This document shows, piece after piece, positions 45,436-62,424 of a DNA stretch of 64,000 nt; the first letter of the stretch is position 1, and each line of letters starts with the position of its first letter. Position numbers and translations under genes: made by a program. The notes below the pieces were generated by a model. That model did not search any database and was not told where the DNA came from. It was given only the letters and a program-made list of their open reading frames with translations. The stretch comes from Pseudomonadota bacterium (lineage in GTDB: Bacteria > Pseudomonadota > Gammaproteobacteria > Burkholderiales > JAJZQI01): assembly GCA_021851875.1 (NCBI GenBank), contig JAJZQI010000005.1:69813-133812 (forward strand), read 5' to 3'.

Positions 45436-45512
45436 GGAGCGGTAGTTCAGTTGGTTAGAATACCGGCCTGTCACGCCGGGGGTCGCGGGTTCGAGTCCCG
45501 TCCGCTCCGCCA
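45436..45512 (+). tRNA. tRNA-Asp(GTC)
   Basis: GGAGCGGTAGTTCAG...CCTGTCACG...GGTTCGAGTCCC...CGCCA, 77 nt. Confidence 0.98.
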
Positions 45513-45569
45513 ACACTGCATACCCCACTTCCCTGACTGACTTCGCAATAGACCGATTGGAAGAAGATC

Positions 45570-46195: not shown

Positions 46196-46229
46196 TGGTC
46201 ATATTTCTGTAATATTACCTCATTAGAAT
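46196..46229 (+). promoter_or_regulatory. Pho box and -10 element of pstS
   Basis: TGGTCAT-ATTT-CTGTAAT (46196-46213), 10-nt spacer, TAGAAT (46224-46229). Confidence 0.8.
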
Positions 46230-46271: not shown

Positions 46272-47309
46272 ATGAAACTGAGCTTTACACGCACCCTAAT
46301 CGCCGCTGCAATCCTGAGCGCAAGCGCAACCGCCTTTGCAGGTGACATCACCGGTGCAGGTGCAACCTTCCCGTATCCAATTTACGCCAAATGGGCTGAA
46401 GCTTACAAAGCAAAAACCGGTATTGGCATGAACTACCAATCCATCGGTTCCGGCGGCGGCATCAAGCAAATCAAAGCTAAAACCGTTGATTTCGGCGCCT
46501 CCGACAAGCCGCTGAACCCGCAGGAACAAGCCGAATCCGGCCTGACCCAGTTTCCGACCGTGATGGGCGCTATCGTTCCGGTGGTTAACCTGGACGGCAT
46601 CGCCGACAGCCAACTGAAACTGAGCGGCCCGGTTCTGGCTGACATCTTCCTGGGCAAAATCACCAAGTGGAACGACCCCGCCATCGCCAAAATGAACGCT
46701 GGAGTTAAACTGCCGGCCACCGACATCACCGTGGTACACCGTGCCGACGGTTCCGGTACCACCTTCAACTTCACCAACTACCTGTCCAAGGTTAGCCCGG
46801 AATGGAAAACCAAAGTCGGTAGCGACGCTTCCGTTGCATGGCCGGTTGGTACCGGCGGTAAAGGTAACGAAGGTGTGGCCAACTTCGTGAAGCAGATCAA
46901 AGGTTCCATTGGCTATGTGGAAGCTGCTTACGCCAAGCAGAACAAGATCACCATGACCCAGATGATGAACCATGACGGCGTCTTCGTTAAAGCCACTGAA
47001 GAAACCTTCAAGGCTGCTGCTGCCGGCGCTGACTGGGAACACGCTCCTGGCTTCTACGAAATTCTGACCGACGAGCCGGGCAAAAACAGCTGGCCGATCG
47101 CTGCTGCCACCTTCATTCTGATGCACAAGCAACAGGGCGATGCCGCACGTGCTGCTGAAGTTCTGAAATTCTTCGCCTGGGCATATGCCAACGGCGACGA
47201 CATGGCTCTGAGCCTGGACTACATCCCGATGCCGGCAAGCGTTGTTAAGAAAATCGAAGCTGCCTGGAAAGCCAATATCAAAACCATGGACGGCAAGGCT
47301 GTTTACTAA
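46272..47309 (+). CDS. pstS: Phosphate ABC transporter substrate-binding protein
   Basis: ITGAGATFPYP, YQSIGSGGG, DFGASD, HRADGSGTT, GKGNEGV. Confidence 0.98.
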   Translation: MKLSFTRTLIAAAILSASATAFAGDITGAGATFPYPIYAKWAEAYKAKTGIGMNYQSIGSGGGIKQIKAKTVDFGASDKPLNPQEQAESGLTQFPTVMGAIVPVVNLDGIADSQLKLSGPVLADIFLGKITKWNDPAIAKMNAGVKLPATDITVVHRADGSGTTFNFTNYLSKVSPEWKTKVGSDASVAWPVGTGGKGNEGVANFVKQIKGSIGYVEAAYAKQNKITMTQMMNHDGVFVKATEETFKAAAAGADWEHAPGFYEILTDEPGKNSWPIAAATFILMHKQQGDAARAAEVLKFFAWAYANGDDMALSLDYIPMPASVVKKIEAAWKANIKTMDGKAVY

Positions 47310-47331
47310 TATCAGTCCTGCTTGACTCTTG

Positions 47332-47368
47332 TGGCCGGGCTGGCCTTCAAAGCTCGGCCATTTTTATT
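47332..47368 (+). terminator. Stem-loop after pstS (terminator or mRNA stabiliser)
   Basis: TGGCCGGGCT...AGCTCGGCCA followed by TTTTTATT. Confidence 0.7.
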
Positions 47369-47467
47369 GGCAATGCTTAATTTGCTTAACTTTTGCGCGT
47401 AACAATAGGCTGATAACAGTTATAATTACTGATTGTCACTTGGCCCGCCGGAACACAGAAAAAGCTC

Positions 47468-48430
47468 ATGTCAAAAGAAACCCCGCCAATATTTGCCAAA
47501 AAACAGCTCCTTATTGATGCGCTGTTTCGACATACCACCCGCTTTTTCGCCTTTCTCGTTTTCGCCCTGCTTGCAGGCATTATTCTGTCTCTGATTATCG
47601 GCAGCATGCCCTCGATCAAGGCTTATGGTCTCCATTTTATTGTCGATGACACCTGGAACCCGGTCACCGAGAAATTCGGTGCACTCACTCCCATCATCGG
47701 CACGCTGGTAACCTCGTTTATCGCTTTGCTGATTGGCGTGCCCATCAGCTTTGGCATCGCATTGTTTTTGACCGAACTCTCTCCACGTTGGCTGCGTCGC
47801 CCGTTGGGTATTGCCATCGAGCTCCTGGCCGGCATCCCCAGCATTATTTACGGCATGTGGGGCCTGTTCGTATTTGCGCCGGCATTTGCCGAACATGTAC
47901 AGCCCTGGCTAAAGGATCACCTGTCTGAACTGCCCTTCGTCGGGATATTGGTACAAGGCCCGCCGATGGGTATCGGTATGCTCACTGCCGGCCTGATTCT
48001 GGCCATTATGGTCATCCCCTTTATTGCTTCGGTGATGCGCGACGTATTCCAGATCGTTCCGGCATTGCTTAAAGAATCGGCTTACGGCCTGGGCGCCACC
48101 ACCTGGGAAGTGGTTTGGCATATTGTGCTGCCCTACACCAAGATCGGCGTCGTCGGCGGCATTATGCTCGGCCTGGGGCGTGCTCTCGGCGAAACCATGG
48201 CTGTTACTTTCGTCATCGGCAATGCGCACAATCTGACCGCTTCCCTCTTCATGCCCGGCAACAGTATCGCTTCCTCGCTGGCCAACGAGTTCACCGAGGC
48301 TGACGGCGAACTGTATACCTCGGCGTTGATCGAATTGGGTCTGCTGCTGTTTGCCATTACATTTATTGTTCTTTCGCTCTCCAAAATCCTCTTGCAGCAA
48401 CTTCGCAAGAACGAAGGACGTGAATCCTGA
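47468..48430 (+). CDS. pstC: Phosphate ABC transporter permease PstC
   Basis: [35 protein letters not shown]. Confidence 0.97.
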
Positions 48431-48444
48431 CCGGAACCCTAATC

Positions 48445-49290
48445 ATGCTGAGCATCTACCGCCGTCGCCAATTCGTGAATTATTTAAATCTGACAGGTTC
48501 CATGCTGACCATGGCTTTTGGTCTATTCTGGTTGATCTGGATCCTGTCGACCCTGTTCGTCAAGGGATTCGATTCTTTGGATCTAGACCTGTTTCGCAAA
48601 ATGACCCCGCCGCCAGGCAGCGATGGCGGTCTGCTGAATGCCATTTTCGGCAGTGCTCTCATGTCTGTCTTGGCAACATTGATTGGTACTCCTGTCGGCA
48701 TACTGGCCGGCACTTATCTGGCCGAATTCGGCCACCGCGGCTGGCTGGCGCCGACCACCCGTTTCATCAATGACATTCTCCTGTCAGCCCCTTCCATCGT
48801 GATCGGCCTATTCATTTATGAAATGTACGTCACCAAGGTGGGCCATTTTTCCGGCTGGGGCGGCACATTTGCTCTGGCACTGCTGGTCATTCCTGTAGTG
48901 GTGCGTACTACGGAAGACATGTTGCGACTAGTGCCGAACAGCCTGCGCGAAGCGGCTGCCGCCCTGGGGGCACCGCAGTGGAAAGTGATCATGCAGATTA
49001 CCTGGCGCGCCTCCAAAGCCGGCATGATGACCGGCGTACTGCTGGCAGTCGCCCGTATCAGCGGCGAGACCGCCCCCCTGCTCTTTACTGCGCTGAACAA
49101 CCAGTTCTGGAGCAGCGATATGAACGCCCCCATGGCGAATCTGCCGGTTGTGATCTTCCAGTTTGCCATGAGCCCCTTCGAGGACTGGCAAAATCTGGCC
49201 TGGGCCGGCGCCCTGCTGATCACGATTGGCGTATTGGGGCTGAATATCATTGCCCGCTCCATGTTCAAACAGAGTCAAATCTCTCAATAA
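48445..49290 (+). CDS. pstA: Phosphate ABC transporter permease PstA
   Basis: [39 protein letters not shown]. Confidence 0.97.
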
Positions 49291-49303
49291 GGTCAAGTCA
49301 TTC

Positions 49304-50077
49304 ATGAATCAGACGAACAGTGTGCCGAACAAGATCCAGGTAAAAAATCTCAATTTTTACTATGGCAACTTTCACGGCCTGAAAAACATTAACCTTGATC
49401 TGAAAGAAAAGAAAGTTACCGCCTTTATCGGCCCGTCCGGCTGCGGCAAATCCACTCTGCTGCGTACCTTTAACCGCATGTACGATCTCTATCCGGGCCA
49501 GCGCGCCGAAGGCGAGATTGTCATGGCTGGCAAGAACATTCTGGATCGCAGCCAGGACGTGAACATGCTGCGTGCCAAAATCGGCATGGTGTTCCAGAAA
49601 CCGACGCCCTTCCCCATGTCAATTCACGACAACGTGGCGTTTGGCGTGAAATTGTATGAGCGCCTGAGCCGCGGCGAAATGGCCGACCGTGTTGAATGGG
49701 CCTTGCGCAAAGCCGCTCTGTGGGATGAAGTCAAGGACAAGCTCAACCAGAGCGGTACCAGCCTGTCCGGCGGTCAGCAGCAGCGCCTGTGTATCGCGCG
49801 CGGTATTGCGGTCAAGCCCGAAGTGCTGCTGCTGGACGAGCCCACTTCCGCGCTGGATCCAATTTCGACCGCGCGCATTGAAGAACTGATCTTCGAGCTG
49901 AAGGAAGACTTCACCATTCTGATCGTGACCCACAACATGCAGCAAGCCGCGCGCGTATCGGATTACACGGCTTACATGTATTTGGGCGAACTGATCGAGT
50001 TCGGCGATACCGACACTATTTTCACCACGCCCAAACAGAAAGCAACGGAAGATTACATCACCGGCAAGTTCGGCTGA
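49304..50077 (+). CDS. pstB: Phosphate ABC transporter ATP-binding protein
   Basis: [41 protein letters not shown]. Confidence 0.98.
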
Positions 50078-50147: not shown

Positions 50148-51125
50148 TCAAGTCCGCTGAGCGGAGAATGACTTGAAGAAGCCCACAATCCGGCTGGCCA
50201 GCGGATTTTCAGTTGTTTCTTTGCTCACTTCCACTTCGTGCTTTTTCACCAGACTTGGGGCAACCTGGAACGACCAGTAGCTTTCCAAGGCCCCCTCAAT
50301 TGCACGCAAAAGCAATTTGGCGCGGATGGGTTTGGGAATGCAGCGGTATACCTGCGCTTCATTGATCAGCGTGACCAACATTGATGCATCGTAAAAGGTC
50401 GTCAGCAAAATAGAGACAGTGCGCGGATTGAAGCGTTTGAGCAGCTTGATCAGCGTGGTGACATCAGCCGTGCCAATGCGAACTTCCGACACGACCACGG
50501 CGATTTCATGTTGCCGCAGAGCCTCGAGCACATCCTCAATTGTAGCCGCATGATGGATGACCAAGCCTGCCGATATGTGTTCGTGCACCAATTCCCGGAC
50601 CTGTACAGCAGACAGCGGGTCTTCATCGATCACCAGAATATGGTCCGTCACAGTGGAATTTGCAGATGGTGCCGGCAGAGTCATATCGCCCAGACTCAAG
50701 GCAATGTCGACAGCACTGGCTACGGTAGCCTTGATCGCGTCAGCATCCCACGGCTTGTTAATGAAGCGGAATACTTCACCCTCATTGATGGAGCCCAGCG
50801 TTGAATCGAGATCGGAGTAGCCGGTAAGCAGAAGACGCATGGTATTGGGGACAATGTATTTAGCTCGGCGGAGTAACTCCACCCCTGTCATGCCGGGCAT
50901 CCGCTGATCACTGATCAGGACATGAATCTTTTCCTGCTGCAGTATCTGCAGTGCCTCGTTGCCGTCAGTCGTTACCCTGACGTTGTATGTTTGCGCGAAC
51001 AGCATGCGCAAGCTGCGCAGGATCCGTTCTTCATCATCGACGCAAAGAATGGTGGGACGGTTGACGGCGACAGTGCTTGTCACCGGATTAAGCTTGCGCT
51101 GTGTCGAGCTCGGGCTTGTTTGCAT
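50148..51125 (-). CDS. Response regulator with tandem receiver domains and no evident output domain (start uncertain)
   Basis: REC1: LCVDDE, SDQRMP, LTGY, NKPW. REC2 degenerate: LVIDED, VSEVRI, PKP. Confidence 0.85.
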   Translation of the reverse strand: MQTSPSSTQRKLNPVTSTVAVNRPTILCVDDEERILRSLRMLFAQTYNVRVTTDGNEALQILQQEKIHVLISDQRMPGMTGVELLRRAKYIVPNTMRLLLTGYSDLDSTLGSINEGEVFRFINKPWDADAIKATVASAVDIALSLGDMTLPAPSANSTVTDHILVIDEDPLSAVQVRELVHEHISAGLVIHHAATIEDVLEALRQHEIAVVVSEVRIGTADVTTLIKLLKRFNPRTVSILLTTFYDASMLVTLINEAQVYRCIPKPIRAKLLLRAIEGALESYWSFQVAPSLVKKHEVEVSKETTENPLASRIVGFFKSFSAQRT

Positions 51126-52413
51126 GGCGGCTATCCTTCGGATGAGGCAAGGCAACGATGAAACGGGTGCCTTTTCCCACTTCGGAGGCAACCCGTATGA
51201 ATCCCTTATGGCTTTCGATAATCTTGAAGACAATGGATAAACCCAGACCGGTACCTTCTCCGACCGGTTTGGTGGTAAAGAATGGATCGAAAATTTTTTG
51301 CAGATTCTCTTTTGAAATGCCTTTGCCGGTGTCCTGCACACTGGCATACACGTAACGTTCATCGGCCCAGGTGCGGATGAGGATTTTTCCATTGCCATCC
51401 ATTGCCTGTGCGGCATTGGTCAACAGATTGAGAAAAACCTGGTTGATTTGCGAAGGCGAGCATTTAACGGCGGGAATCTCACCGTATTGCTTGATCAGTT
51501 GGACCTTGTTCTTCAATACGTTCTTGGCGATGACCAGCGTGCTTTCAATGGTCTGGTTGAGGCTCACCTCGTCAACAGCGGCCTGATCCAGCCGGCTGAA
51601 GTTTTTCAGATTCAGCACGATTTCGCTGATCTGATCAACGCCGAACAGGGTATCGCCGAACAGGTTGTCGACTTCCTCCGCCGGATACACAGACCAGAAA
51701 TCATTGCGCTGACGGTCAATCTCTCCCAGATAGCGTACGACAGCCGTCTCCTCCGCTTCTCCGCCCATCAGCAAAGCCAGCAGTTCGTCGTAACTGGCGA
51801 CCAGCCCCTTCAGTTGCGCAAACACATCCTGCGCCAGGCTGACATTGTTTTTCACGTAACCCAGCGGCGTATTGATCTCGTGCGCCACGCCAGCGACCAT
51901 CTGCCCCAGGGAAGCCATTTTTTCCGACTGGATCAGTTGCGACTGGGAGGCTTGCAATTCACGATAGGCACGGGTGATTTCCTCACTTTGCCGCGTGAGC
52001 TTGCCCTCCATCACCTTCAGCAGGTCCACCACGTGTCCGATGCCGGAATACTGCCCGTCGCGCGTGAGAATGAAATCCTCGGTAATGGGGAATTTGATAT
52101 TGCTGGTCACATAACGGCTGATCTGCTCCATGGGCTGTTTCATGTCCACAACCACCGCCTTGCGGTTCATGAACTGCGTCACGCTTTTTTTCCCATACAG
52201 CTCGCGCCCGTACATCGACATGTAGATCTTCTGCATCTCGCTGCGGCTGATCACGCCGATAGGCCGGCCCGCATCCACCACCGGCAGGCACAGAAAACGC
52301 TCATAGTCATCATGAAGCAGCAATTCGCTGACATCATCAACGGTATGGCTGGGGGTTACAGGTTCCAGCTGTACAAGCAGGGATTCGACTTCACTCACAT
52401 CAACACCAGACAA
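51088..52413 (-). CDS. Cytoplasmic NtrB-class histidine kinase with an N-terminal CBS pair
   Basis: LPVVDAGRPIGVISR (CBS), EKMASLGQMVAGVAHEINTP, QVFLNLLTNA, DTGKGI, FFTTKPVGEGTGLGL; no TM. Confidence 0.92.
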   Translation of the reverse strand: MSGVDVSEVESLLVQLEPVTPSHTVDDVSELLLHDDYERFLCLPVVDAGRPIGVISRSEMQKIYMSMYGRELYGKKSVTQFMNRKAVVVDMKQPMEQISRYVTSNIKFPITEDFILTRDGQYSGIGHVVDLLKVMEGKLTRQSEEITRAYRELQASQSQLIQSEKMASLGQMVAGVAHEINTPLGYVKNNVSLAQDVFAQLKGLVASYDELLALLMGGEAEETAVVRYLGEIDRQRNDFWSVYPAEEVDNLFGDTLFGVDQISEIVLNLKNFSRLDQAAVDEVSLNQTIESTLVIAKNVLKNKVQLIKQYGEIPAVKCSPSQINQVFLNLLTNAAQAMDGNGKILIRTWADERYVYASVQDTGKGISKENLQKIFDPFFTTKPVGEGTGLGLSIVFKIIESHKGFIRVASEVGKGTRFIVALPHPKDSRHANKPELDTAQA

Positions 52414-52504: not shown

Positions 52505-52554
52505 TTAAGGAAGTCCTGAACAAGTTGCCGCCGACTTGTTCAGGACTTCCTTAA
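52505..52554. mobile_element. IS5-type ends-only miniature element (42 bp) with flanking TTAA
   Basis: TTAA-GGAAGTCCTGAACAAGT-TGCCGCCG-ACTTGTTCAGGACTTCC-TTAA; perfect 17-bp inverted repeats resembling IS5 ends. Confidence 0.7.
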
Positions 52555-52583: not shown

Positions 52584-52892
52584 TTATCGCAGATATTGCT
52601 GCAGTTTGGCCAGAGTTTCGTCAGCCGAGTCATGCATCACTTTCAGGTAGATGTCGAAGCGCCTCGAACTGTAAACCGTATCTATAACGCAACACACCAC
52701 CTTTATGGGGCTGTTGTTGGCCTGCGGAAATGCGAATATCAGCTTGCAGTCTGTCTCACGCGGCAGACTTATATCGCACGAGACGACCATTTTGGAAAGG
52801 TTGAGCTGTTTTAAATGACCACTCAAACTCTGTGCCGGTGTCACCAGCTTGACCGGGAAACGCGCCCCCGGGCGAATCTGTCCGATAGACAT
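52584..52892 (-). CDS. Stand-alone PilZ-like protein
   Basis: RPGARFP (RxxxR), NLS (partial D/NxSxxG), beta-rich, C-terminal LAKLQQYL helix. Confidence 0.65.
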   Translation of the reverse strand: MSIGQIRPGARFPVKLVTPAQSLSGHLKQLNLSKMVVSCDISLPRETDCKLIFAFPQANNSPIKVVCCVIDTVYSSRRFDIYLKVMHDSADETLAKLQQYLR

Positions 52893-52926: not shown

Positions 52927-52960
52927 CCCGATGATGTCTTCTGCAACAGACATCATCGGG
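52927..52960. repeat. 13-bp stem hairpin between the CheY-like and PilZ-like genes
   Basis: CCCGATGATGTCT-N8-AGACATCATCGGG. Confidence 0.75.
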
Positions 52961-52984: not shown

Positions 52985-53350
52985 TCAGCTCGCCAGCTTC
53001 TTGAATGTTTCCAGTACTGCCTCGCCTTTGAACGGCTTGACGATCCAACCCTTGATGCCTGCCGCCTTGCCGCGTTCCTTCATGTTCGGACTGCTTTCCG
53101 TGGTCAGCATGATGACATTCACGCTGCTGTTACCCAACTCGCTGCGGATTTTCTCAACCATGGTCAAGCCATCCATATTGGGCATATTCACGTCGCTCAC
53201 CACCAGCTTGATGCCCGGGTTCGCTTGCAATTTTGTCAGCCCGTCCTTGCCATCCACGGCTGTTACCACATCAAGACCATTTTTGCTCAGAAAACCGGAA
53301 ACCTCATCACGTACTGTGCTCGAGTCATCCACAACGAGAATCTTTGCCAT
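52985..53350 (-). CDS. CheY-like single-domain response regulator
   Basis: ILVVDDS, SDVNMPNMDG, MLTTE, WIVKPF. Confidence 0.95.
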   Translation of the reverse strand: MAKILVVDDSSTVRDEVSGFLSKNGLDVVTAVDGKDGLTKLQANPGIKLVVSDVNMPNMDGLTMVEKIRSELGNSSVNVIMLTTESSPNMKERGKAAGIKGWIVKPFKGEAVLETFKKLAS

Positions 53351-53382: not shown

Positions 53383-54339
53383 TTAAAAGAGTTCCAATTC
53401 GCCCGCATCCACCAAGCCATCGACTTCCTGCTCGATCTCGCGAAACTTTTCAGGTGCCCAGCGCAGATTGAAAACAAAACGCTGGTAAATTTTCATGCTC
53501 CATGTGCGCTCCTCGTTTGTCAGCGTGTACAAGAAGCACAACTGGGGATTTTCAGTACCGAAAGAAATATATTTATGCTTGTGATTGACGACCAGCGGGA
53601 CTTCAACATTGACGCCCGGAATAACGGATTCGTCGCCGATAAAGCGATTTTTGAATGCCCCCCATATGAGATTGGTCACCTCACCGAGCAAGCTGTTTAC
53701 ATTGCGGAAATTCACCTCGGTATGGATTTTTTCCGACTCCCCCAGCCAATGCAGTACGGGCATCTCTTCTGTCTGCAAGGTCATGTATCCGCGGCACCAC
53801 GAGCTTTCCAGCGGAATCAGGCTGTATACCTCGCCGAAAATCAGGCGGTCGCGCACAATGAACGGCGTCTCCCAGCTGACGGTCAGATTCTTGAACTGAC
53901 TTGCCAGGGCCGTTTCGGTTATCTCTGAAATACCGCGGACCAATGCATTGGGATACACAAGGCTGAAAATGTATTCCTGAATAGCCTGCTGCAGGCCTTG
54001 TGAATCAGCGACGCTGAAGGTCGCGCAACATATTCTTTTCAGTGTTTCAGGCAATGAACTCAAGTCGAACTCGTCCTCCACGCGGAGGATAATGGGTAAT
54101 TCAGGGCGGAATGCATGAATTCTGGTTGCCAGCTCTACGGTATCGCCTTCACTGCCGCCGTAGCTGTAGGAAAGGATGATCGCCCCCAGTTCGAGGCTGG
54201 ATTTCAACACGGTAAAGAGTCGGTTTTTACGCACCTTGAGAGGCACCAGGGAGTGCTCATCGGCAAACTGCTTGATAAACGCCAGTTGTTTTAAATCATT
54301 TTCCAGGACAAGAATCTTGCTGGTGAGTTGTTCTGTCAT
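53383..54339 (-). CDS. Pseudo-receiver plus CheX-like phosphatase domain protein
   Basis: N-terminal KILVLEND...PELPIILR; C-terminal LGEVTNLIWG (ExxN), VEVP; ends GELELF. Confidence 0.7.
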   Translation of the reverse strand: MTEQLTSKILVLENDLKQLAFIKQFADEHSLVPLKVRKNRLFTVLKSSLELGAIILSYSYGGSEGDTVELATRIHAFRPELPIILRVEDEFDLSSLPETLKRICCATFSVADSQGLQQAIQEYIFSLVYPNALVRGISEITETALASQFKNLTVSWETPFIVRDRLIFGEVYSLIPLESSWCRGYMTLQTEEMPVLHWLGESEKIHTEVNFRNVNSLLGEVTNLIWGAFKNRFIGDESVIPGVNVEVPLVVNHKHKYISFGTENPQLCFLYTLTNEERTWSMKIYQRFVFNLRWAPEKFREIEQEVDGLVDAGELELF

Positions 54340-54359: not shown

Positions 54360-54896
54360 TCAGAATAATTCGAGTTCTCCCCCGGCAACCTGTTCGGCCG
54401 AGGAAAGATCAATTGCAAAATCCAGTGGTGTATTGGCCGTAACACACAAGCTTGCCTGCAGGCCGACTCCACCATTGACGGTGATGTCATAACTCGTTAA
54501 CAGTGTGGGATTCAGGCTTTGCAAGTAGTGCGCACTGGAGGTCTTCAATGTATACGGTGTAGACATGCCCAGATAGTCGAATTGGTTGCCCATGTGCCGG
54601 TTGAACTCGCCTCCGCACAGGTTGACGATTTCGGCAAAGACTTCTTCTATCTGTTGTCCGCCTTTGCCGAAATAGCCATGCATAGCGGCATTATCGGCAA
54701 CGTAAAATATAAGCATGGTGCGGAACATACAGGAGCTGATCGTCAGTACCTGCATGAATTTTTGCTTGGCGTGCAATTGCGGCAAGCAGCCCAAGGAGTT
54801 CACATGGACGGTATCGCCGGCATTTTGGGCGATACCGTTTTTGACTGACAGAACAAATGCCTCTTCCAGCGCGTGTTGTGCACGTGCGGAAATCAT
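54360..54896 (-). CDS. CheX-like protein
   Basis: [10 protein letters not shown] (ExxN), LGMSTP; ends GELELF. Confidence 0.6.
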
Positions 54897-55669
54897 TGCG
54901 CCCGCCTTTCAATCTGGCTGGCCAGGTTGTTGAGCTGGGCTTCTATTGAAGCCAGAGCCGCCATGATCATCTTTCCGCCTGCCTGAATGTCCTGAAAAGT
55001 CGAGGTAGTTGTCAGATCATTCTTGTCCAGACTTTCCCCATAGTTTTTGGACAGCACCTCCGAGCGATTGGCCAACATCCTGACTTCGTCAGCCACCACA
55101 GCAAACCCTCTGCCCGATTCACCGGCCCGCGCCGCCTCGATGGAAGCATTCAGAGCGAGAATAACGACCTGCTTGACGATGGAGGCAAATTCCTCGTTCT
55201 TGAAATGCATACCCTTGTTCTGATCCATCAGGTGCGACATACGTTCATGCCAGCGTTCAAACAAGAGACTGACATTCTTGAGACGCGCCAATTCCTGTGC
55301 AACCAGGGTCAGTTCACTGCGTATCTTGCCCTGCGCACGATTGGAATCGTCCTGCACCTTGCCGAGCACTGACTGATGTGATGCCTGCGCTTCATCACAC
55401 TGTGTTTCCAGCTGATGCAGCTGACGCATCAGCTCCTGCAGTTGCTGTTCTGCGACGTGCAGACTGGCAGCTCGGCTGGACAGCTCTTCCTGCAGGTTTT
55501 GCCGATCCAGCTGTAATTTTTTGACGTCATTGTCAGACTGTGTAAGGCGCTGATTGGCTTCATTGCGCACAAAGTCCAGCCGTTTGTCGTAATATTTTCG
55601 GGTGAGAAAAAAGGCCGAAATGCCGCCCAGAACGGCGGCAACGGCAAATGTAATAATCAGGATTGTCAT
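54893..55669 (-). CDS. Truncated MCP: one TM, coiled coil and signalling hairpin tip only
   Basis: [31 protein letters not shown]; 258 aa, no sensor or HAMP domain. Confidence 0.88.
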
Positions 55670-55704: not shown

Positions 55705-58026
55705 TCAGATAACCATATAAGACTCGGGCAAGGTGATAATGGTGGAGAAACTGCGGAAGGCGTGCCCAACGTTGTCGTCTTCGAATTTTAGCTTGATATC
55801 GCCCCCTTCACGACGAATGAACGCTCGCACCGCATCCATGCCCACGCCGCGGCCGGAGATGTCACTTACCTGCTCTGCCGTTGACAGCCCGGATGCAAAG
55901 ACTTGTTCAGCAATATCCTCGTCGGTGTGATCGCTTTCGCCGGTAAACAGGCCGGTCTGCAGTGCTTTGGCGCGAATACGTTCCAGCGCCAGCCCCTTGC
56001 CATCATCTTTTAGCTGAATAACCAGCTTTCCCTCGTCACGGAACATGTCGAGCCGGATGTGTCCTGCGGTCGGTTTGCCCTTTTGTGCCCGCTCGTCAGG
56101 CTGCTCGATGCCATGGTCGATGGCGTTGCGATACAGGTGCATAAAGGCATTGCGCAGGATGTCGCTCACCTGGTTGCGCAAGCGGATGCCATTATCGCTG
56201 ATGGAGGTTACCGGTTCGTCCTTGCCCAGTTCTCTGGCCACCGAGGGCAATGATTGGATAATCGGGTCCAGCACATCATGAATACTGCTGGTTCCCAGGC
56301 GCCCCAACTGCTCGCGCACGGAGCGCAGCTTATCGAGCAAAATGTCCTGACGCTCTTCTACCGGCGGCATGTCAGCCAGGTTGTCGCACAGCTCCTTGAT
56401 GAAGGTACGCTCAACCATGAGATATTTCTCGGCGTTGCCACGACGTCCCGGACCTTTGCGGCCCAGCTTGTTGTCGTTTACATCTTCATATTCATCCAGC
56501 AGCGTACCGATTTCGGTCAACTGGGTAAGCAGCAGTTCCCGATCGGCAACAGCACTGGGGTCTTTGCGCAGGTTGTCGTATGTCTGTTCGGCTTCGTGCA
56601 CACTGTGCGTAAGCAACTGCAGTCCATAGGTCCGGGCATTGCCCTTGATGGTGTGCATATTGCGAAACAGCACTGTCAGCACATCGGCATCAAACACATT
56701 CGACTCAACAAGGTACCTGTTCTCTTGCAGGAAGGTGCGTGAACCCTCGACAAATGCGTGGAATTTTTCCTGGCTCACCGCAATGATCTGGCGAATCATT
56801 TCCAGTTCGCGCTTCTGATGTGCCGCCTCTGCTTCAATTTCCCGCAAATGAGTAATATCACGAATGCTCAGCATGATTTTCTCAATATTCTCATTCTCGT
56901 CGCAGATGGGGCTCCAGTGGAGCGCCAGATACTGGTGCGCTCCCTCGGCGCGCTTTCTTTCAATTTCCTGCGGCAGCAAATGAGCGTTGAAATCGAAGTT
57001 CATACGCTCTTCGCCGATTGAAGAATCAAACACGGCTGCTATTTGCGCCAGAGCATCGGCACCCTCTGTCGAACCGGAGAAAATGAAGTCCAAAGCGTTC
57101 GCCCCGGCAATCTGCGGCGTTTCATAGATTGTTTCCAGATAGGCCGAATACTCCGGATGGATGGTTCCATCCTGCTGGATGGTAAGGACGCCTTCAGGGA
57201 GATTCTGCAACATGCTGTTGATATCAGCCGTTTTCTCCTTGAGTCGCTCGGAACCGTCCTGAATTTTTTCGATCATGAGATTGAACGCCCGCATGGAGCG
57301 CCCGAGCTCATCCTCGCTGGTCACCGGCAAACGACGGGAAAAATCCTGTGTAGAGGCAACCTCGGTCATCATTTGCTGCATTCTCGACATCGGGCGGATC
57401 ACCTGCCGATACAGCAAGACTCCCATGACGCCCAAAACAATCAGTGAAATCAGACTGACTATGGAAATGGCCGATACGGTCTGTTTCAGATTCGCATTCA
57501 GTTGCGCAATCGCTTCGTCTTTACTGCGATTTTTCTGAATACGCAGCGTTTCGATGATTTGCTCAATGTTGCTCTGATATTCTGCGGCATTTGCCGCGTA
57601 ATTGGCTTCTGCCAGCTGATCCTTGCCCTGCAGCTTGAATTGAACAGTGCTGTCTACTGCCGCATAATAGTCAGCCAGCGTTTCGTTCAGCTGGGTGACA
57701 AGCCCCTTTTGAGCCTCACTATCCGCTTCTTTGGACTGGGCTGCCAGGCTCTGCTGCAACGTATTTTTCTGTTCTGCAAGTCGATTTGCCAGTTTCTGGG
57801 CCGCATCCAGATCCGGAGCAGCCAAAATGGCGCGGGTCGTGAGCAGCACGTCTTTGAGTTTGGAAAGCATGTCGGACGAGGCCAGCGCACTGGGCACCAC
57901 GCCTTCTGTCACACTTCGAACCTCACTCGAGTTCTTTTGCGATTGCCAGATCGAATAGCCTCCTACGAGGCCCAAGCCAAGCAATGTGAGCATGACAAGC
58001 AGAAAAATACGCTGACGAATGGACAT
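55705..58026 (-). CDS. Membrane-bound CheA-like kinase (TM-4HB-TM-HAMP-PAS-like-Hpt-HATPase) lacking a CheW domain
   Basis: HAMP RPM...[11 protein letters not shown]; Hpt [13 protein letters not shown]; CheA-type [39 protein letters not shown]; ends right after the HATPase. Confidence 0.88.
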
Positions 58027-58067
58027 ACCTTGTTTCCGTTAAATATTAGTTAGCATTAATTTTCTAA

Positions 58068-58101
58068 ATATTACAAACATCTCGTGACTGTTTCGTGACA
58101 A
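58068..58101 (-). promoter_or_regulatory. Pho box and -10 element driving the CheA-like operon
   Basis: Minus strand TTGTCAC-GAAA-CAGTCAC (58101-58084), 10-nt spacer, TAATAT (58073-58068). Confidence 0.7.
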
Positions 58102-58195
58102 CCGGCACATCAAGCTGTAACAAATAAATCTGTATTGCAATCTTCTTGTAACAATCGGATGTGAACATTGCCTTAATTCCCAAACCGGATAACGA

Positions 58196-59833
58196 ATGAA
58201 TATGAAACAGTTAAGCATTAAAACAAGCTTGTTCATCGGCGCGATCATCACAGCGCTGGTTCTGGCTGTTCTGGCCGTGGAGAACCTGTATGTTCTGCAT
58301 CGCGGCGAGGAATCCATGGATACGGTGTATAACCGTGCGGTTGCACCCTCATCACTGCTGATCGACATGGAACGGCAACTCAGCCGCGCACGATTCAATA
58401 TGGCCGCCACCCAGTTCGACAAGGTGCCGTTTACCGATGCCAAGAATCAACTTGTGCAACTGATGGCCAACTTGCCCAGCCAGTGGAAGCAATTCAAGCA
58501 GTTGAAAAACGGTGACCTGACAGCAGATGAAACCAAACTGATCGCCGGCATTGACAAGGCCATGATCGAATTGCCCAATGTGGTCAAAATGCTGTCGGTG
58601 TCGTACGACGATCATGACAAAACCATGACGCGTTCCGTATTGGATGATGATTGGCCGGGCGTTGAAGATGGCGTGCTGAAGCCGATCACCCAATTGATCG
58701 CATTGCAAAAGGAAAACATCATTGCACAGCTGCACGCCACACAACAGACCAACCACACCATGCAACAGGTCGTACTGGCGAGCGTGATACTGGGTGGCTT
58801 GTTTGCATTGCTATCCACCTTGTTCACCTACCGGATGACGCGCAACATGGATCAGGGTATTCGCCATTTGAAAGAGGCGTTCGGCCGCATTTCCAACGGC
58901 GACCTGACCACTGAAGTCGCTTACGGCGGCAAGAACGAGTTTGGCGAAATGGCCCAGCACCTCGACAGCATGGTCAAAAATCTGCGCAACATGGTCAGCA
59001 AGATGGATTCTGCCGCGTCCGTTGTCTCGCAGGAAGCCAGCAATCTGTCCAAGGCTGTCACCCTGATCGAACAAAGCTCGCACACCCAATCGGATGCGGC
59101 GAGTGAAACAGCCGCAGCGGTGCAGCAGATTTCCGTCAGCATTTCGCAGGTATCCAGCAACGCCCAAATCTCCTTGCACAGCTCACTCAACGGCAGCGAG
59201 CTGTGCCAGACCGGGAGCAGCGTTGTAGGCCGTACCGTGGAAGAAATGCGGCAGATTTCCGCCACGGTTGAAGAAACCGCCCAGTTGATTCGCACGCTGC
59301 ATCAACGCTCGGTTGATATCGATCAGATCAGCAATACCATCAAGGATATTGCCGGCCAGACCAACTTGCTGGCGCTCAACGCCGCCATTGAAGCGGCCCG
59401 CGCCGGCGAGCAGGGCCGCGGTTTTGCAGTTGTGGCGGACGAAGTGCGCAAACTGGCCGAGCGCACCGGCAAGGCCACGCAGGAAATCCAGGACATGACC
59501 AGCTCGATCCAGAGCGAAATGGCCACTGCGCTTAATATCATCGAGGCCAATCGCGAACGGGTGGAACATGGTGTGATCCTCACCCGCCAAGCCGATCAAT
59601 CGCTCAGCGATATCGGCCGGGGTACGCGCGACACGGCCCAGAGCGTGGAAGAAATTGCCCGCGCCACAGCCGAGCAGCATGTCAGCAGCCAGGATATCGC
59701 CCGCAACGTCGAGCGTATTTCCTCCATGGCGGAACAGAATGCCCGGGAAATTTCCGCCCTCGGCCAGTCTTCCCGCATCCTGAAGGAAATGGCCGAGAAC
59801 TTCCAGCTGGATATCGCGCAGTTCCGTATTTGA
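58196..59833 (+). CDS. Methyl-accepting chemotaxis protein (4HB sensor, HAMP)
   Basis: Two TMs, GDLT...[50 protein letters not shown]. Confidence 0.96.
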
Positions 59834-61391: not shown

Positions 61392-61796
61392 ATGCCCTCC
61401 AGACTCAAGTTGCTCATTGTCGATGATAATGCCCTGATCCGCCAGCTGCTGCGCGGGATACTGCACGAGTCCAGCATGGAAGCGTGGCCGAGGCACACGA
61501 CGGGCACACCGCGATGCAGCTGATAGGGCTGCACAAACCGCATATCGTCTTGCTCGACATCATGATGGAAGATATGAACGGCACCGACGTGCTGACTGCC
61601 GTCAAGGCCGCTCATCCGGACATGATTGTCATGATGATCAGCAGCGCCGGCATCCAGCGACAACGTGAAGCGCTCGCTCGATGCCGGCGCAGACGGCTTT
61701 CTGGTCAAACCGTTCAACACCTCGCGGGTGCTGGACGAACTCAAGCACGCCATTGCCCATGCGCTGGCACGTCAGGGTATCAGGAACGAGAACTAG
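61392..61796 (+). pseudogene. Single-domain response regulator interrupted by two compensating frameshifts
   Basis: Segments LLIVDDN / AEAHDG...LLDIMM / DNVKRSLDAGADGFLVKPF; segments 1 and 3 share a frame, the middle one is shifted. Confidence 0.85.
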
Positions 61797-62424
61797 ACGA
61801 GCGCTGCTTGATGGCCTCCTGCAGCATTGCGGCAATATCCGTATTGCCGTTCTGCAAGGCGAAACTCACGGCGTTCTGCCCCGCCATGTTCACGGCCAGC
61901 GGATTGGCGCCATGCTCCAGGAGTAATTGCACCATCTCGACATGCCCATTGCGGGCGGCCACCATCAAGGCCGTCGTACCGTTTTCCGAAGCGGTTTCGA
62001 TCTGCGCACCATGCCGCAGCAGCAGCTCGGCAATAGCCAGATGACCATTGAAAGCCGCGTAGCTCAAGGGCGACCAGTTGCCCGCGCCATCAATGACGGC
62101 GCCGCGGACAAGCATTTTTTCAATCAGCGCGGTTTTACCGAAATAAGCGGCCAGCATCAAGGGGGTTTCGCGCAGGCTGTTGGTGTGCTTCATGTCAGCC
62201 AGCGGCAGCAGCACTTCGGCCACGGCCTCGTCGTTGTCGCGAATGGCTGTCATGATGAGCGTATCGCCCAGCTTATCGCTCGTGTCCGGGTCAAACCCGC
62301 GCTGCAAAATCTCGCTCACCGTCGCTGCATCGTTATTTCTGATCGCCTGGTACATGTCGTCGTAAGTTGCCGCCCGGCCCTGCAACGGCAGACAGACCAG
62401 ACAGACCAGCAGCCAGCGCTTCAC
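61780..62424 (-). CDS. Ankyrin repeat protein with signal peptide
   Basis: TPLMLAA, SPLSYAAFNGH, TALMVAARNGH repeats. Confidence 0.92.
   Translation of the reverse strand: MKRWLLVCLVCLPLQGRAATYDDMYQAIRNNDAATVSEILQRGFDPDTSDKLGDTLIMTAIRDNDEAVAEVLLPLADMKHTNSLRETPLMLAAYFGKTALIEKMLVRGAVIDGAGNWSPLSYAAFNGHLAIAELLLRHGAQIETASENGTTALMVAARNGHVEMVQLLLEHGANPLAVNMAGQNAVSFALQNGNTDIAAMLQEAIKQRSSSSRS

Follow-up and report, generated by a model that had tools for sequence, protein, structure and literature searches.

A probable PhoB-activated promoter upstream of an orphan chemosensory-like cassette of Betaproteobacteria

Introduction

PhoB boxes consist of 7-bp direct repeats close to CTGTCAT with an 11-bp periodicity, and the box substitutes for the -35 element of the promoter, about 10 nt ahead of the -10. 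The effector domains of PhoB are described as binding the direct repeats of the pho box in tandem and as touching RNA polymerase (PMC3348028). In P. aeruginosa, phosphate lowers the expression of the chemoreceptors CtpH and CtpL, and CtpL is reported to sense phosphate via PstS (PMC9864684). Both are ordinary methyl-accepting chemotaxis proteins (MCPs) acting through the main CheA/CheW pathway. As for the kinase of such pathways, a survey of CheA proteins presents Hpt, H-kinase_dim, HATPase_c, and CheW as a core of invariably co-occurring domains and regards CheA as a protein without a sensor domain (PMC10542144).

The locus described here is reminiscent of each of these systems. As with CtpH and CtpL, a chemoreceptor-type sensor and an MCP are found near pstS and behind Pho-box-like sites, but here a whole separate cassette of kinase, CheY, and CheX, devoid of CheW, takes the place of receptors feeding the main pathway. 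The cassette shares with canonical CheA-CheW-MCP pathways that include CheX an Hpt domain and a CheA-type ATPase, CheY, CheX-type proteins, and an MCP-tip protein, whereas its kinase includes a transmembrane 4HB-HAMP sensor of its own and has no detected P3 or P5 domain. The element that precedes it is built like E. coli-type pho-box/pstS promoters, with two 7-bp repeats, a 4-bp spacer, 10 nt to a TAnnnT hexamer, and no -35. It differs from pstS-type promoters in being weaker, in an A at position 2 of repeat 2, in an atypical gap segment, and in the genes that it would drive, which serve signaling and not the uptake or scavenging of phosphate. Our literature search found no paper linking the cassette to phosphate or to the Pho regulon. 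Here, we propose that the 34-bp element at positions 58101-58068 (minus strand) is probably a PhoB-activated promoter and thus marks a new member of the Pho regulon.

Results

The window, i.e., the whole 64-kb stretch of DNA that was analyzed, contains the candidate element on its minus strand. The first half-site, TTGTCAC (58095..58101), matches YTGTCAY at 7/7 positions and is followed by the linker GAAA (58094-58091) and by the second half-site, CAGTCAC (58084..58090), which matches at 6/7 positions, with A for T at position 2. A 10-nt gap, GAGATGTTTG (58083-58074), then leads to the predicted -10 hexamer TAATAT (58068..58073). The second half-site begins 11 bp past the first and occupies the -35 position, and the box as a whole matches 13/14 positions of YTGTCAY-N4-YTGTCAY. 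The end of TAATAT lies 41 nt from the ATG of the kinase gene (58026), and we infer a transcription start for the kinase operon near 58061. An earlier sequence-only reading had reported this box, spacing, and hexamer, had placed the site about 40 nt upstream of the kinase ATG, and had stated that it copies the geometry of the pstS promoter exactly; the bases proved exact, the distance is that given above, and the two sites do share one layout, 7-4-7-10-6.

The pstS promoter of the window (TGGTCAT-ATTT-CTGTAAT, the 10-nt segment ATTACCTCAT, and TAGAAT; 46196..46229, plus strand) ends 42 nt short of the pstS start codon (ATG, 46272), ahead of pstSCAB (46272-50077, plus strand). The phoB promoter of the genome (CTGTAAC-CAAG-GTGTAAT, 10 nt, TATGAT) has the same layout as both. 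The genome, a 2.68-Mb assembly with 59% G+C whose DNA was found in mine-drainage and soil metagenome runs, encodes the corresponding regulatory pair: PhoB (C10:94777-95454) scores 358 bits with TIGR02154, above the 296-bit equivalog cut-off of NCBIfam, and its gene adjoins that of PhoR, a 440-aa kinase with a PF11808 domain. phoU is also present.

No TTGACA-like hexamer was found 16 to 18 nt before TAATAT by reading the sequence, and a sigma-70 scan returned no promoter with a -35 on the minus strand in the candidate region, as would be expected if the promoter depends on an activator. A possible extra half-site, TTGTTAC (58117..58123, minus strand), lies 22 bp farther upstream than half-site 1 and in phase with it; the intervening heptamer, TGATGTG, departs from the Pho-box repeat. 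The 169-bp region between the kinase gene and the divergent MCP gene (58027-58195) has four exact TGTMAY hexamers in a span of 80 nt, a count that is matched but not exceeded among 1199 intergenic segments. The sequence TGTAACAA also occurs there twice on the plus strand, at 58116 and, 31 nt further on, at 58147. An Rfam scan of positions 57800-58400 gave a sub-threshold snoRNA match alone, which we judged spurious.

The same region offers two further sites. On the plus strand, TTGCAAT-CTTC-TTGTAAC, 10 nt, and GAACAT (58135..58168; 12.5 bits with the matrix described below) face the divergent MCP gene and end 27 nt upstream of its ATG (58196). This site comes next after the candidate in the matrix ranking, has a weak -10 (1.0 bit), and, by its sequence, may bring the divergent MCP under Pho control too. 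On the minus strand, a second reading, TTGTAAT-ATTT-AGAAAAT, 10 nt, TAATAT (58076-58043; 11.2 bits), overlaps the candidate and ends 16 nt before the ATG. The true promoter might be this downstream reading, or the region might mainly serve the divergent MCP, in which case Pho control would hold with a different anatomy. The scores of both sites are near the 12.8 bits of the candidate. The downstream reading would, however, leave a leader of only roughly 9 nt, and its second heptamer, AGAAAAT, is without the G-T core. Moreover, the -10 elements of orthologous loci end 27 to 41 nt or 85 to 105 nt before the ATG, distances that fit the 41 nt of the first reading. We consider either rearranged anatomy very improbable.

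Within the window, the pattern YTGTCAY-N4-YTGTCAY-N10-TANNNT with at most 2 mismatches was found at pstS and at the candidate only; shuffled windows gave a mean of 0.05 matches, and 0/100 shuffles reached 2. When the search was widened to all 300 kb of intergenic DNA in the genome, the candidate alone matched with at most 1 mismatch, for 0.02 expected (100 shuffles), and allowing 2 mismatches yielded 6 matches versus 0.45 expected. Without the -10, YTGTCAY-N4-YTGTCAY at 13/14 positions or better occurs in 11 places genome-wide, 5 of them intergenic, for about 7 estimated by hand from base composition at 13-14/14; the Pho box alone is thus not rare, and a scan with the consensus only, lacking the -10, was set aside as too unspecific a yardstick on its own. 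The only perfect match to the box in the genome, TTGTCATTAAACTGTCAT (C10:75779-75796, locus L087), lies upstream of the atp operon, where it is followed by a small ORF and then by the gene for subunit a, and a properly spaced -10 is absent.

For a matrix suited to this clade, we turned to the pstS promoters of its order. pstS genes were taken from 29 other genomes, the pstS of the present genome being left out, and 24/29 upstream regions contained a box, 10 nt, and TAnnnT matching at least 15/17 seed positions; these 24 sites gave a matrix of 34 columns. Applied to the intergenic sites of the genome, it ranked the genome's own pstS first (30.8 bits), a gene for an EAL-GGDEF protein second (23.4 bits), and phoB third (20.9 bits), while ranks 4 and 5 fell inside or beside doubtful ORFs. 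In this genome-wide scan, the candidate, at 12.8 bits, is 11th among intergenic positions. The 11 positions that reach its score compare with 0.94 for 200 matrices with permuted box columns (maximum 5) and with 1.1 expected after shuffling within each intergenic segment. The box of the candidate taken by itself scores 13.3 bits, more than that of phoB (11.1 bits), and its 10-nt segment between box and -10 is atypical, at -7.3 bits. The total remains far under the scores of the 24 training sites (21.3-39.7 bits, about 21-40) and of phoB, and the second base of repeat 2, A in the candidate, is A in 1/24 training sites.

These numbers bear on the simplest objection, namely, that an AT-rich stretch between divergent promoters contains a Pho-box look-alike by chance, that this repeat is not used by PhoB, and that another signal drives the operon. 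The abundance of boxes without a -10, the candidate's score well under the pstS type, and the matrix matches of similar rank that precede genes such as nifV and nadA, with no obvious phosphate link, or lie within an ORF speak for such a coincidence; given these sites, the matrix rank alone is suggestive and not decisive. The uniqueness of the full geometry in intergenic DNA and the excess over permuted matrices argue against it, as does the recurrence of the element in front of orthologous operons described below.

Other sites found in the scan concern different gene families. The second-ranking site (TTGTCAT-TTTT-TCGTAAC, 10 nt, TACACT) precedes a gene for a 622-aa EAL-GGDEF protein (C38:55175-57105, L121). 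A further Pho-box-like site (13.6 bits) lies 35 nt before the start of a gene for a GT4 glycosyltransferase resembling monoglucosyl-diacylglycerol synthase (C30:78360-79622, L127); from sequence, it plausibly fits a phosphate-sparing remodeling of lipids.

The operon behind the candidate comprises five genes on the minus strand. Gene 1 (55705..58026) encodes a 773-aa protein made of a membrane sensor and a CheA-type kinase core. It is followed by genes for a soluble 258-aa protein with an MCP signaling (tip) domain (gene 2, 54893..55669; PF00015, E 2e-18), for a 178-aa CheX-type protein (gene 3, 54360..54896), for a 318-aa protein with a CheX domain at residues 171-270 (gene 4, 53383..54339; PF13690, E 5e-9), and for a 121-aa single-domain CheY-like response regulator (gene 5, 52985..53350). 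Gene 2 is kept beside the kinase gene in most orthologous loci, and the CheY of gene 5 is 71-88% identical to the copies in orthologous operons. A hairpin with a 13-bp perfect stem (52927..52960), 25 nt past the cheY stop, may represent the end of the operon, a T-run being absent on the operon's strand.

The assignment of gene 3 draws on its family. PF13690 matched 24/29 orthologues at E values up to 1 (best, 7e-7), the copy of the window giving no match, and weak profile matches to solved CheX chains were obtained. Residues E89, N92, and P114 are invariant in the 29 orthologues. The active-site signature of CheC and CheX is E-x2-N-x22-P. The spacing of the three residues fits this signature, pointing to a CheX-type protein.

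The kinase contains a 4HB_MCP domain (residues 1-170), a HAMP domain (204-257), a weak PAS match (277-392), an Hpt domain (433-502), and HATPase_c (622-747). Its P1 region is recognized by PF01627 at residues 433-502 (E 2.4e-7). For P4, the NCBIfam CheA models match residues 596-751 only (E 1e-41 and 7.5e-37), with scores far under the full-length cut-offs of those models. Neither P3 (H-kinase_dim, PF02895) nor P5 (the CheW domain, PF01584) gave a match, even at E values up to 5, and the protein extends 26 residues beyond the ATPase domain, then ends. CheW, CheR, and CheB are absent from the operon, the 8 CheW-domain matches of the genome all lying elsewhere. The label "CheA-like" given in the sequence-only reading therefore holds for the Hpt domain and the CheA-type ATPase and not for a canonical CheA; judged by its domains, the kinase is outside the CheA family as currently defined, since P3 and P5 were tested for and not found.

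The same core is joined to other modules elsewhere. It occurs in a 1994-aa fusion with a Ser/Thr protein kinase, AAA, and GAF (L043:5642-11623) and is fused to a 7TMR-DISM membrane module in another locus (L021:812-3682). Judged from such fusions, the Hpt and CheA-type ATPase core is a portable output module. Kinases with these other sensors (7TMR-DISM in L021, the Ser/Thr-kinase fusion in L043) had no box in the loci checked.

The divergent MCP (58196..59833, plus strand) has 545 aa, with 4HB_MCP, HAMP, and MCPsignal domains. No solved relatives, ligand-binding domains included, were found for its sensor domain or for that of the kinase, and the two sensors show no mutual similarity. FliM is encoded in the genome. 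The pst genes lie about 8 kb away from the candidate promoter, and the stretch between them includes a separate kinase/regulator pair, i.e., a CBS histidine kinase (51088-52413, minus strand) and a receiver/HD-GYP-like regulator (50148-51416, minus strand).

Several other features of the window were recorded. A 102-aa ORF (52584-52892, minus strand) with an RxxxR motif near its N terminus lies just past the cheY hairpin, between that hairpin (52927-52960) and another at about 52505-52545, and precedes the genes of the kinase/regulator pair named above. It had no Pfam match, and a possible correspondence with the small ORF that follows the Ralstonia operon was dismissed, the two being unrelated on comparison. 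A tRNA-like sequence (about 45438-45514, plus strand; anticodon loop GTC by eye) is found upstream of pstS, between ftsK and a hemerythrin gene. Finally, a 214-aa ankyrin-repeat protein is encoded at 61780-62424 (minus strand) beside a metallo-beta-lactamase-fold gene and a TatD gene; ankyrin-repeat proteins are uncommon in free-living bacteria.

Relatives of the kinase number in the hundreds at 40-53% identity. The kinase was found in 1/39 other genomes searched (46% identity), and its best metagenome relative shows 53%. We assembled 79 genome loci and 80 metagenome loci, in most of which the order kinase, MCP-tip, CheX, CheX-domain protein, CheY is kept. They gave 135 usable upstream regions, reduced to 110 non-redundant ones.

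A forward site of at least 12 bits was found in 15/110 regions and one of at least 15 bits in 10/110, versus 0/110 reverse-strand sites of at least 12 bits and a mean of 0.065 with permuted matrices. Sites of at least 12 bits are present in 10/34 regions of the same 773-aa architecture versus 5/76 of other architectures. The box is accordingly conserved before a subset of the orthologous operons, with 95/110 regions having no site of at least 12 bits. A matrix-free search for the core GTMAY-N6-GTMAY gave 13/110 forward and 2/110 reverse, for about 0.6-0.8/110 expected per strand (background, 0.005-0.0075 per 300 nt per strand). In the kinase type of about 905 aa (Rhodocyclaceae-like), the best match lies 27 to 33 nt before the first ATG in 15/21 loci. 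Cultured bacteria are among the carriers of the cassette: Propionivibrio limicola (L014) has a strong box, and Thauera aromatica (L071) a weaker one. A forward-only recurrence of this kind is hardly expected of a chance look-alike, which we regard as unlikely.

The genes surrounding the orthologous cassettes were scanned in the genome loci. Among 639 other ORFs of at least 150 codons and high GC3, 11 have a site of at least 12 bits, and 10 of the 11 have a Pfam assignment. These boxed neighbors encode PPK2 (L011 and L015), a PhoA-family alkaline phosphatase (L040), PstS (L035), histidine phosphatases (L010 and L015), a HAD hydrolase (L023), and EAL-GGDEF proteins (L010, L020, and L023); the remaining one, of 162 aa and without a Pfam assignment, is in L010. 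The cassette clusters with other boxed phosphate genes in 7 loci. In L035, it diverges from a pstS-pstCAB operon with a box of its own on each side, and a second pstS-like gene follows cheY; in L078, pstS is directly upstream of the kinase gene. Such pstS-like genes were found in the flanks of 2/80 genome loci only (L035 and L078). The sequence-only reading had concluded that the operon belongs to the Pho regulon and that its position next to pstSCAB is functional: the computations support the membership well, whereas a functional meaning of the adjacency, as stated, is not supported.

Burkholderia, Caballeronia, Ralstonia, and Ideonella also have full-length orthologues, which are located on secondary replicons. 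Upstream of those of Burkholderia, Ralstonia, and Caballeronia, a GTCAY-N6-GTCAY repeat lies 10 to 11 nt before an ATAAT-type -10, and the repeat and -10 of these named relatives are found 85 to 105 nt before the ATG. Examples are CGGTCAT-CGGA-CAGTCAT in B. cenocepacia, CGGTCAT-CGAT-TGGTCAT in R. wenshanensis, and ATGTCAC-GCAC-CTGTCAC in Burkholderia sp. YI23. The kinase is encoded in 33/40 genomes of one genus, where the 30 distinct upstream sequences have both GTCAT cores and GATAAT invariant, the two bases before each core being variable. Box-only scores of 7 Burkholderiaceae loci were at most 4.1 bits in 5 and reached 9.6 and 11.8 bits in the other two; the spacing from repeat to -10 is 11 nt in five of the 7.

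Two published data sets may touch on these cassettes. A 2026 proteome of B. glumae reports the products of adjacent cheX (BGL336gr_05406) and cheY (05407) genes, candidate orthologues of those studied here, as enriched without phosphate (PMC13700237). A Burkholderia transcriptome also mentions cheX, under a condition other than the phosphate comparison of interest (PMC10009688).

The Burkholderiaceae repeats raise the possibility that a different member of the OmpR/PhoB family, with a preference for GTCAY-N6-GTCAY, controls the cassette in response to a signal other than phosphate. Seven further full-length regulators of the OmpR/PhoB type, with matches spanning about 1-226 of the model, are indeed encoded in the genome, and the Burkholderiaceae repeat reads GGTCAT/AGTCAT, not the TGTCAY of pstS boxes, and scores poorly. 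The pstS box of the present genome likewise begins with TGGTCAT, however, and no further regulator gene accompanies the cassette. Moreover, wherever the sites are strong, the boxes of the cassette are indistinguishable from those of the pstS, PPK2, and alkaline phosphatase genes of the same loci. Control by such a paralogous regulator has, in our estimation, only a slim chance of being correct. Since most of their repeats get low scores from the pstS-derived matrix, PhoB control of the Burkholderiaceae cassettes is likely but less secure.

Discussion

The reading that we favor is activation of the five-gene operon by PhoB. At low phosphate, PhoR would phosphorylate PhoB, a dimer of which would bind head-to-tail on the two 11-bp-spaced heptamers at the place of the -35. 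PhoB would then bring sigma-70 RNA polymerase to TAATAT, transcription would start near 58061, and the transcript would span the genes for the sensor-fused CheA-type kinase without P3 and P5, the MCP-tip protein, the two CheX-type proteins, and CheY. A transcript driven by a PhoB-dependent promoter would make the five-gene cassette a member of the Pho regulon, i.e., a phosphorelay produced only under phosphate scarcity. Within it, the sensor kinase would phosphorylate CheY, and the CheX-type proteins would reset it. The output of CheY would most likely modulate motility or a related behavior (taxis, surface behavior). PhoB binding, induction at low phosphate, the start site, and the output of the cassette are what we infer from these comparisons.

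A more ambitious proposal is that of a dedicated phosphate-starvation behavior pathway, induced by PhoB, in which the sensor reads phosphate directly or via PstS and CheY redirects motility or surface behavior. The periplasmic sensor reading phosphate through PstS is modeled here on CtpL. We regard this full pathway as possible and put it forward tentatively.

The EAL-GGDEF genes extend the comparison to a further class of signaling proteins. RapA of Pseudomonas fluorescens, a c-di-GMP enzyme, is reportedly under Pho control. The EAL-GGDEF gene with the second-best box of the present genome is reminiscent of it, although it belongs to a gene family other than the cassette. Taken with the strongly boxed EAL-GGDEF genes beside the cassette in L010, L020, and L023, its site suggests that the Pho regulon of these bacteria includes a conserved c-di-GMP arm. 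Such genes would be behavior-controlling signaling genes within the predicted regulon.

Since Pho boxes and phosphate-regulated chemoreceptors are already known, the regulatory element is in itself ordinary. The interest lies in its target, a conserved chemosensory-like cassette outside the usual definition of CheA and with no described function, which is widespread in Betaproteobacteria. The site with the pstS layout, together with similar sites before the same operon in many Betaproteobacteria, indicates that this orphan module is probably on when phosphate runs out. The recurrent Pho box and the neighboring genes for PPK2, alkaline phosphatase, and PstS thereby provide a testable condition for a module with no known role. 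In Betaproteobacteria, the predicted Pho regulon is also widened to signaling genes that control behavior, represented by the cassette and by the EAL-GGDEF enzymes. If the proposal is true, the orphan module would gain its first physiological context, and the Pho regulon would gain a complete accessory chemosensory pathway, beyond receptors alone.
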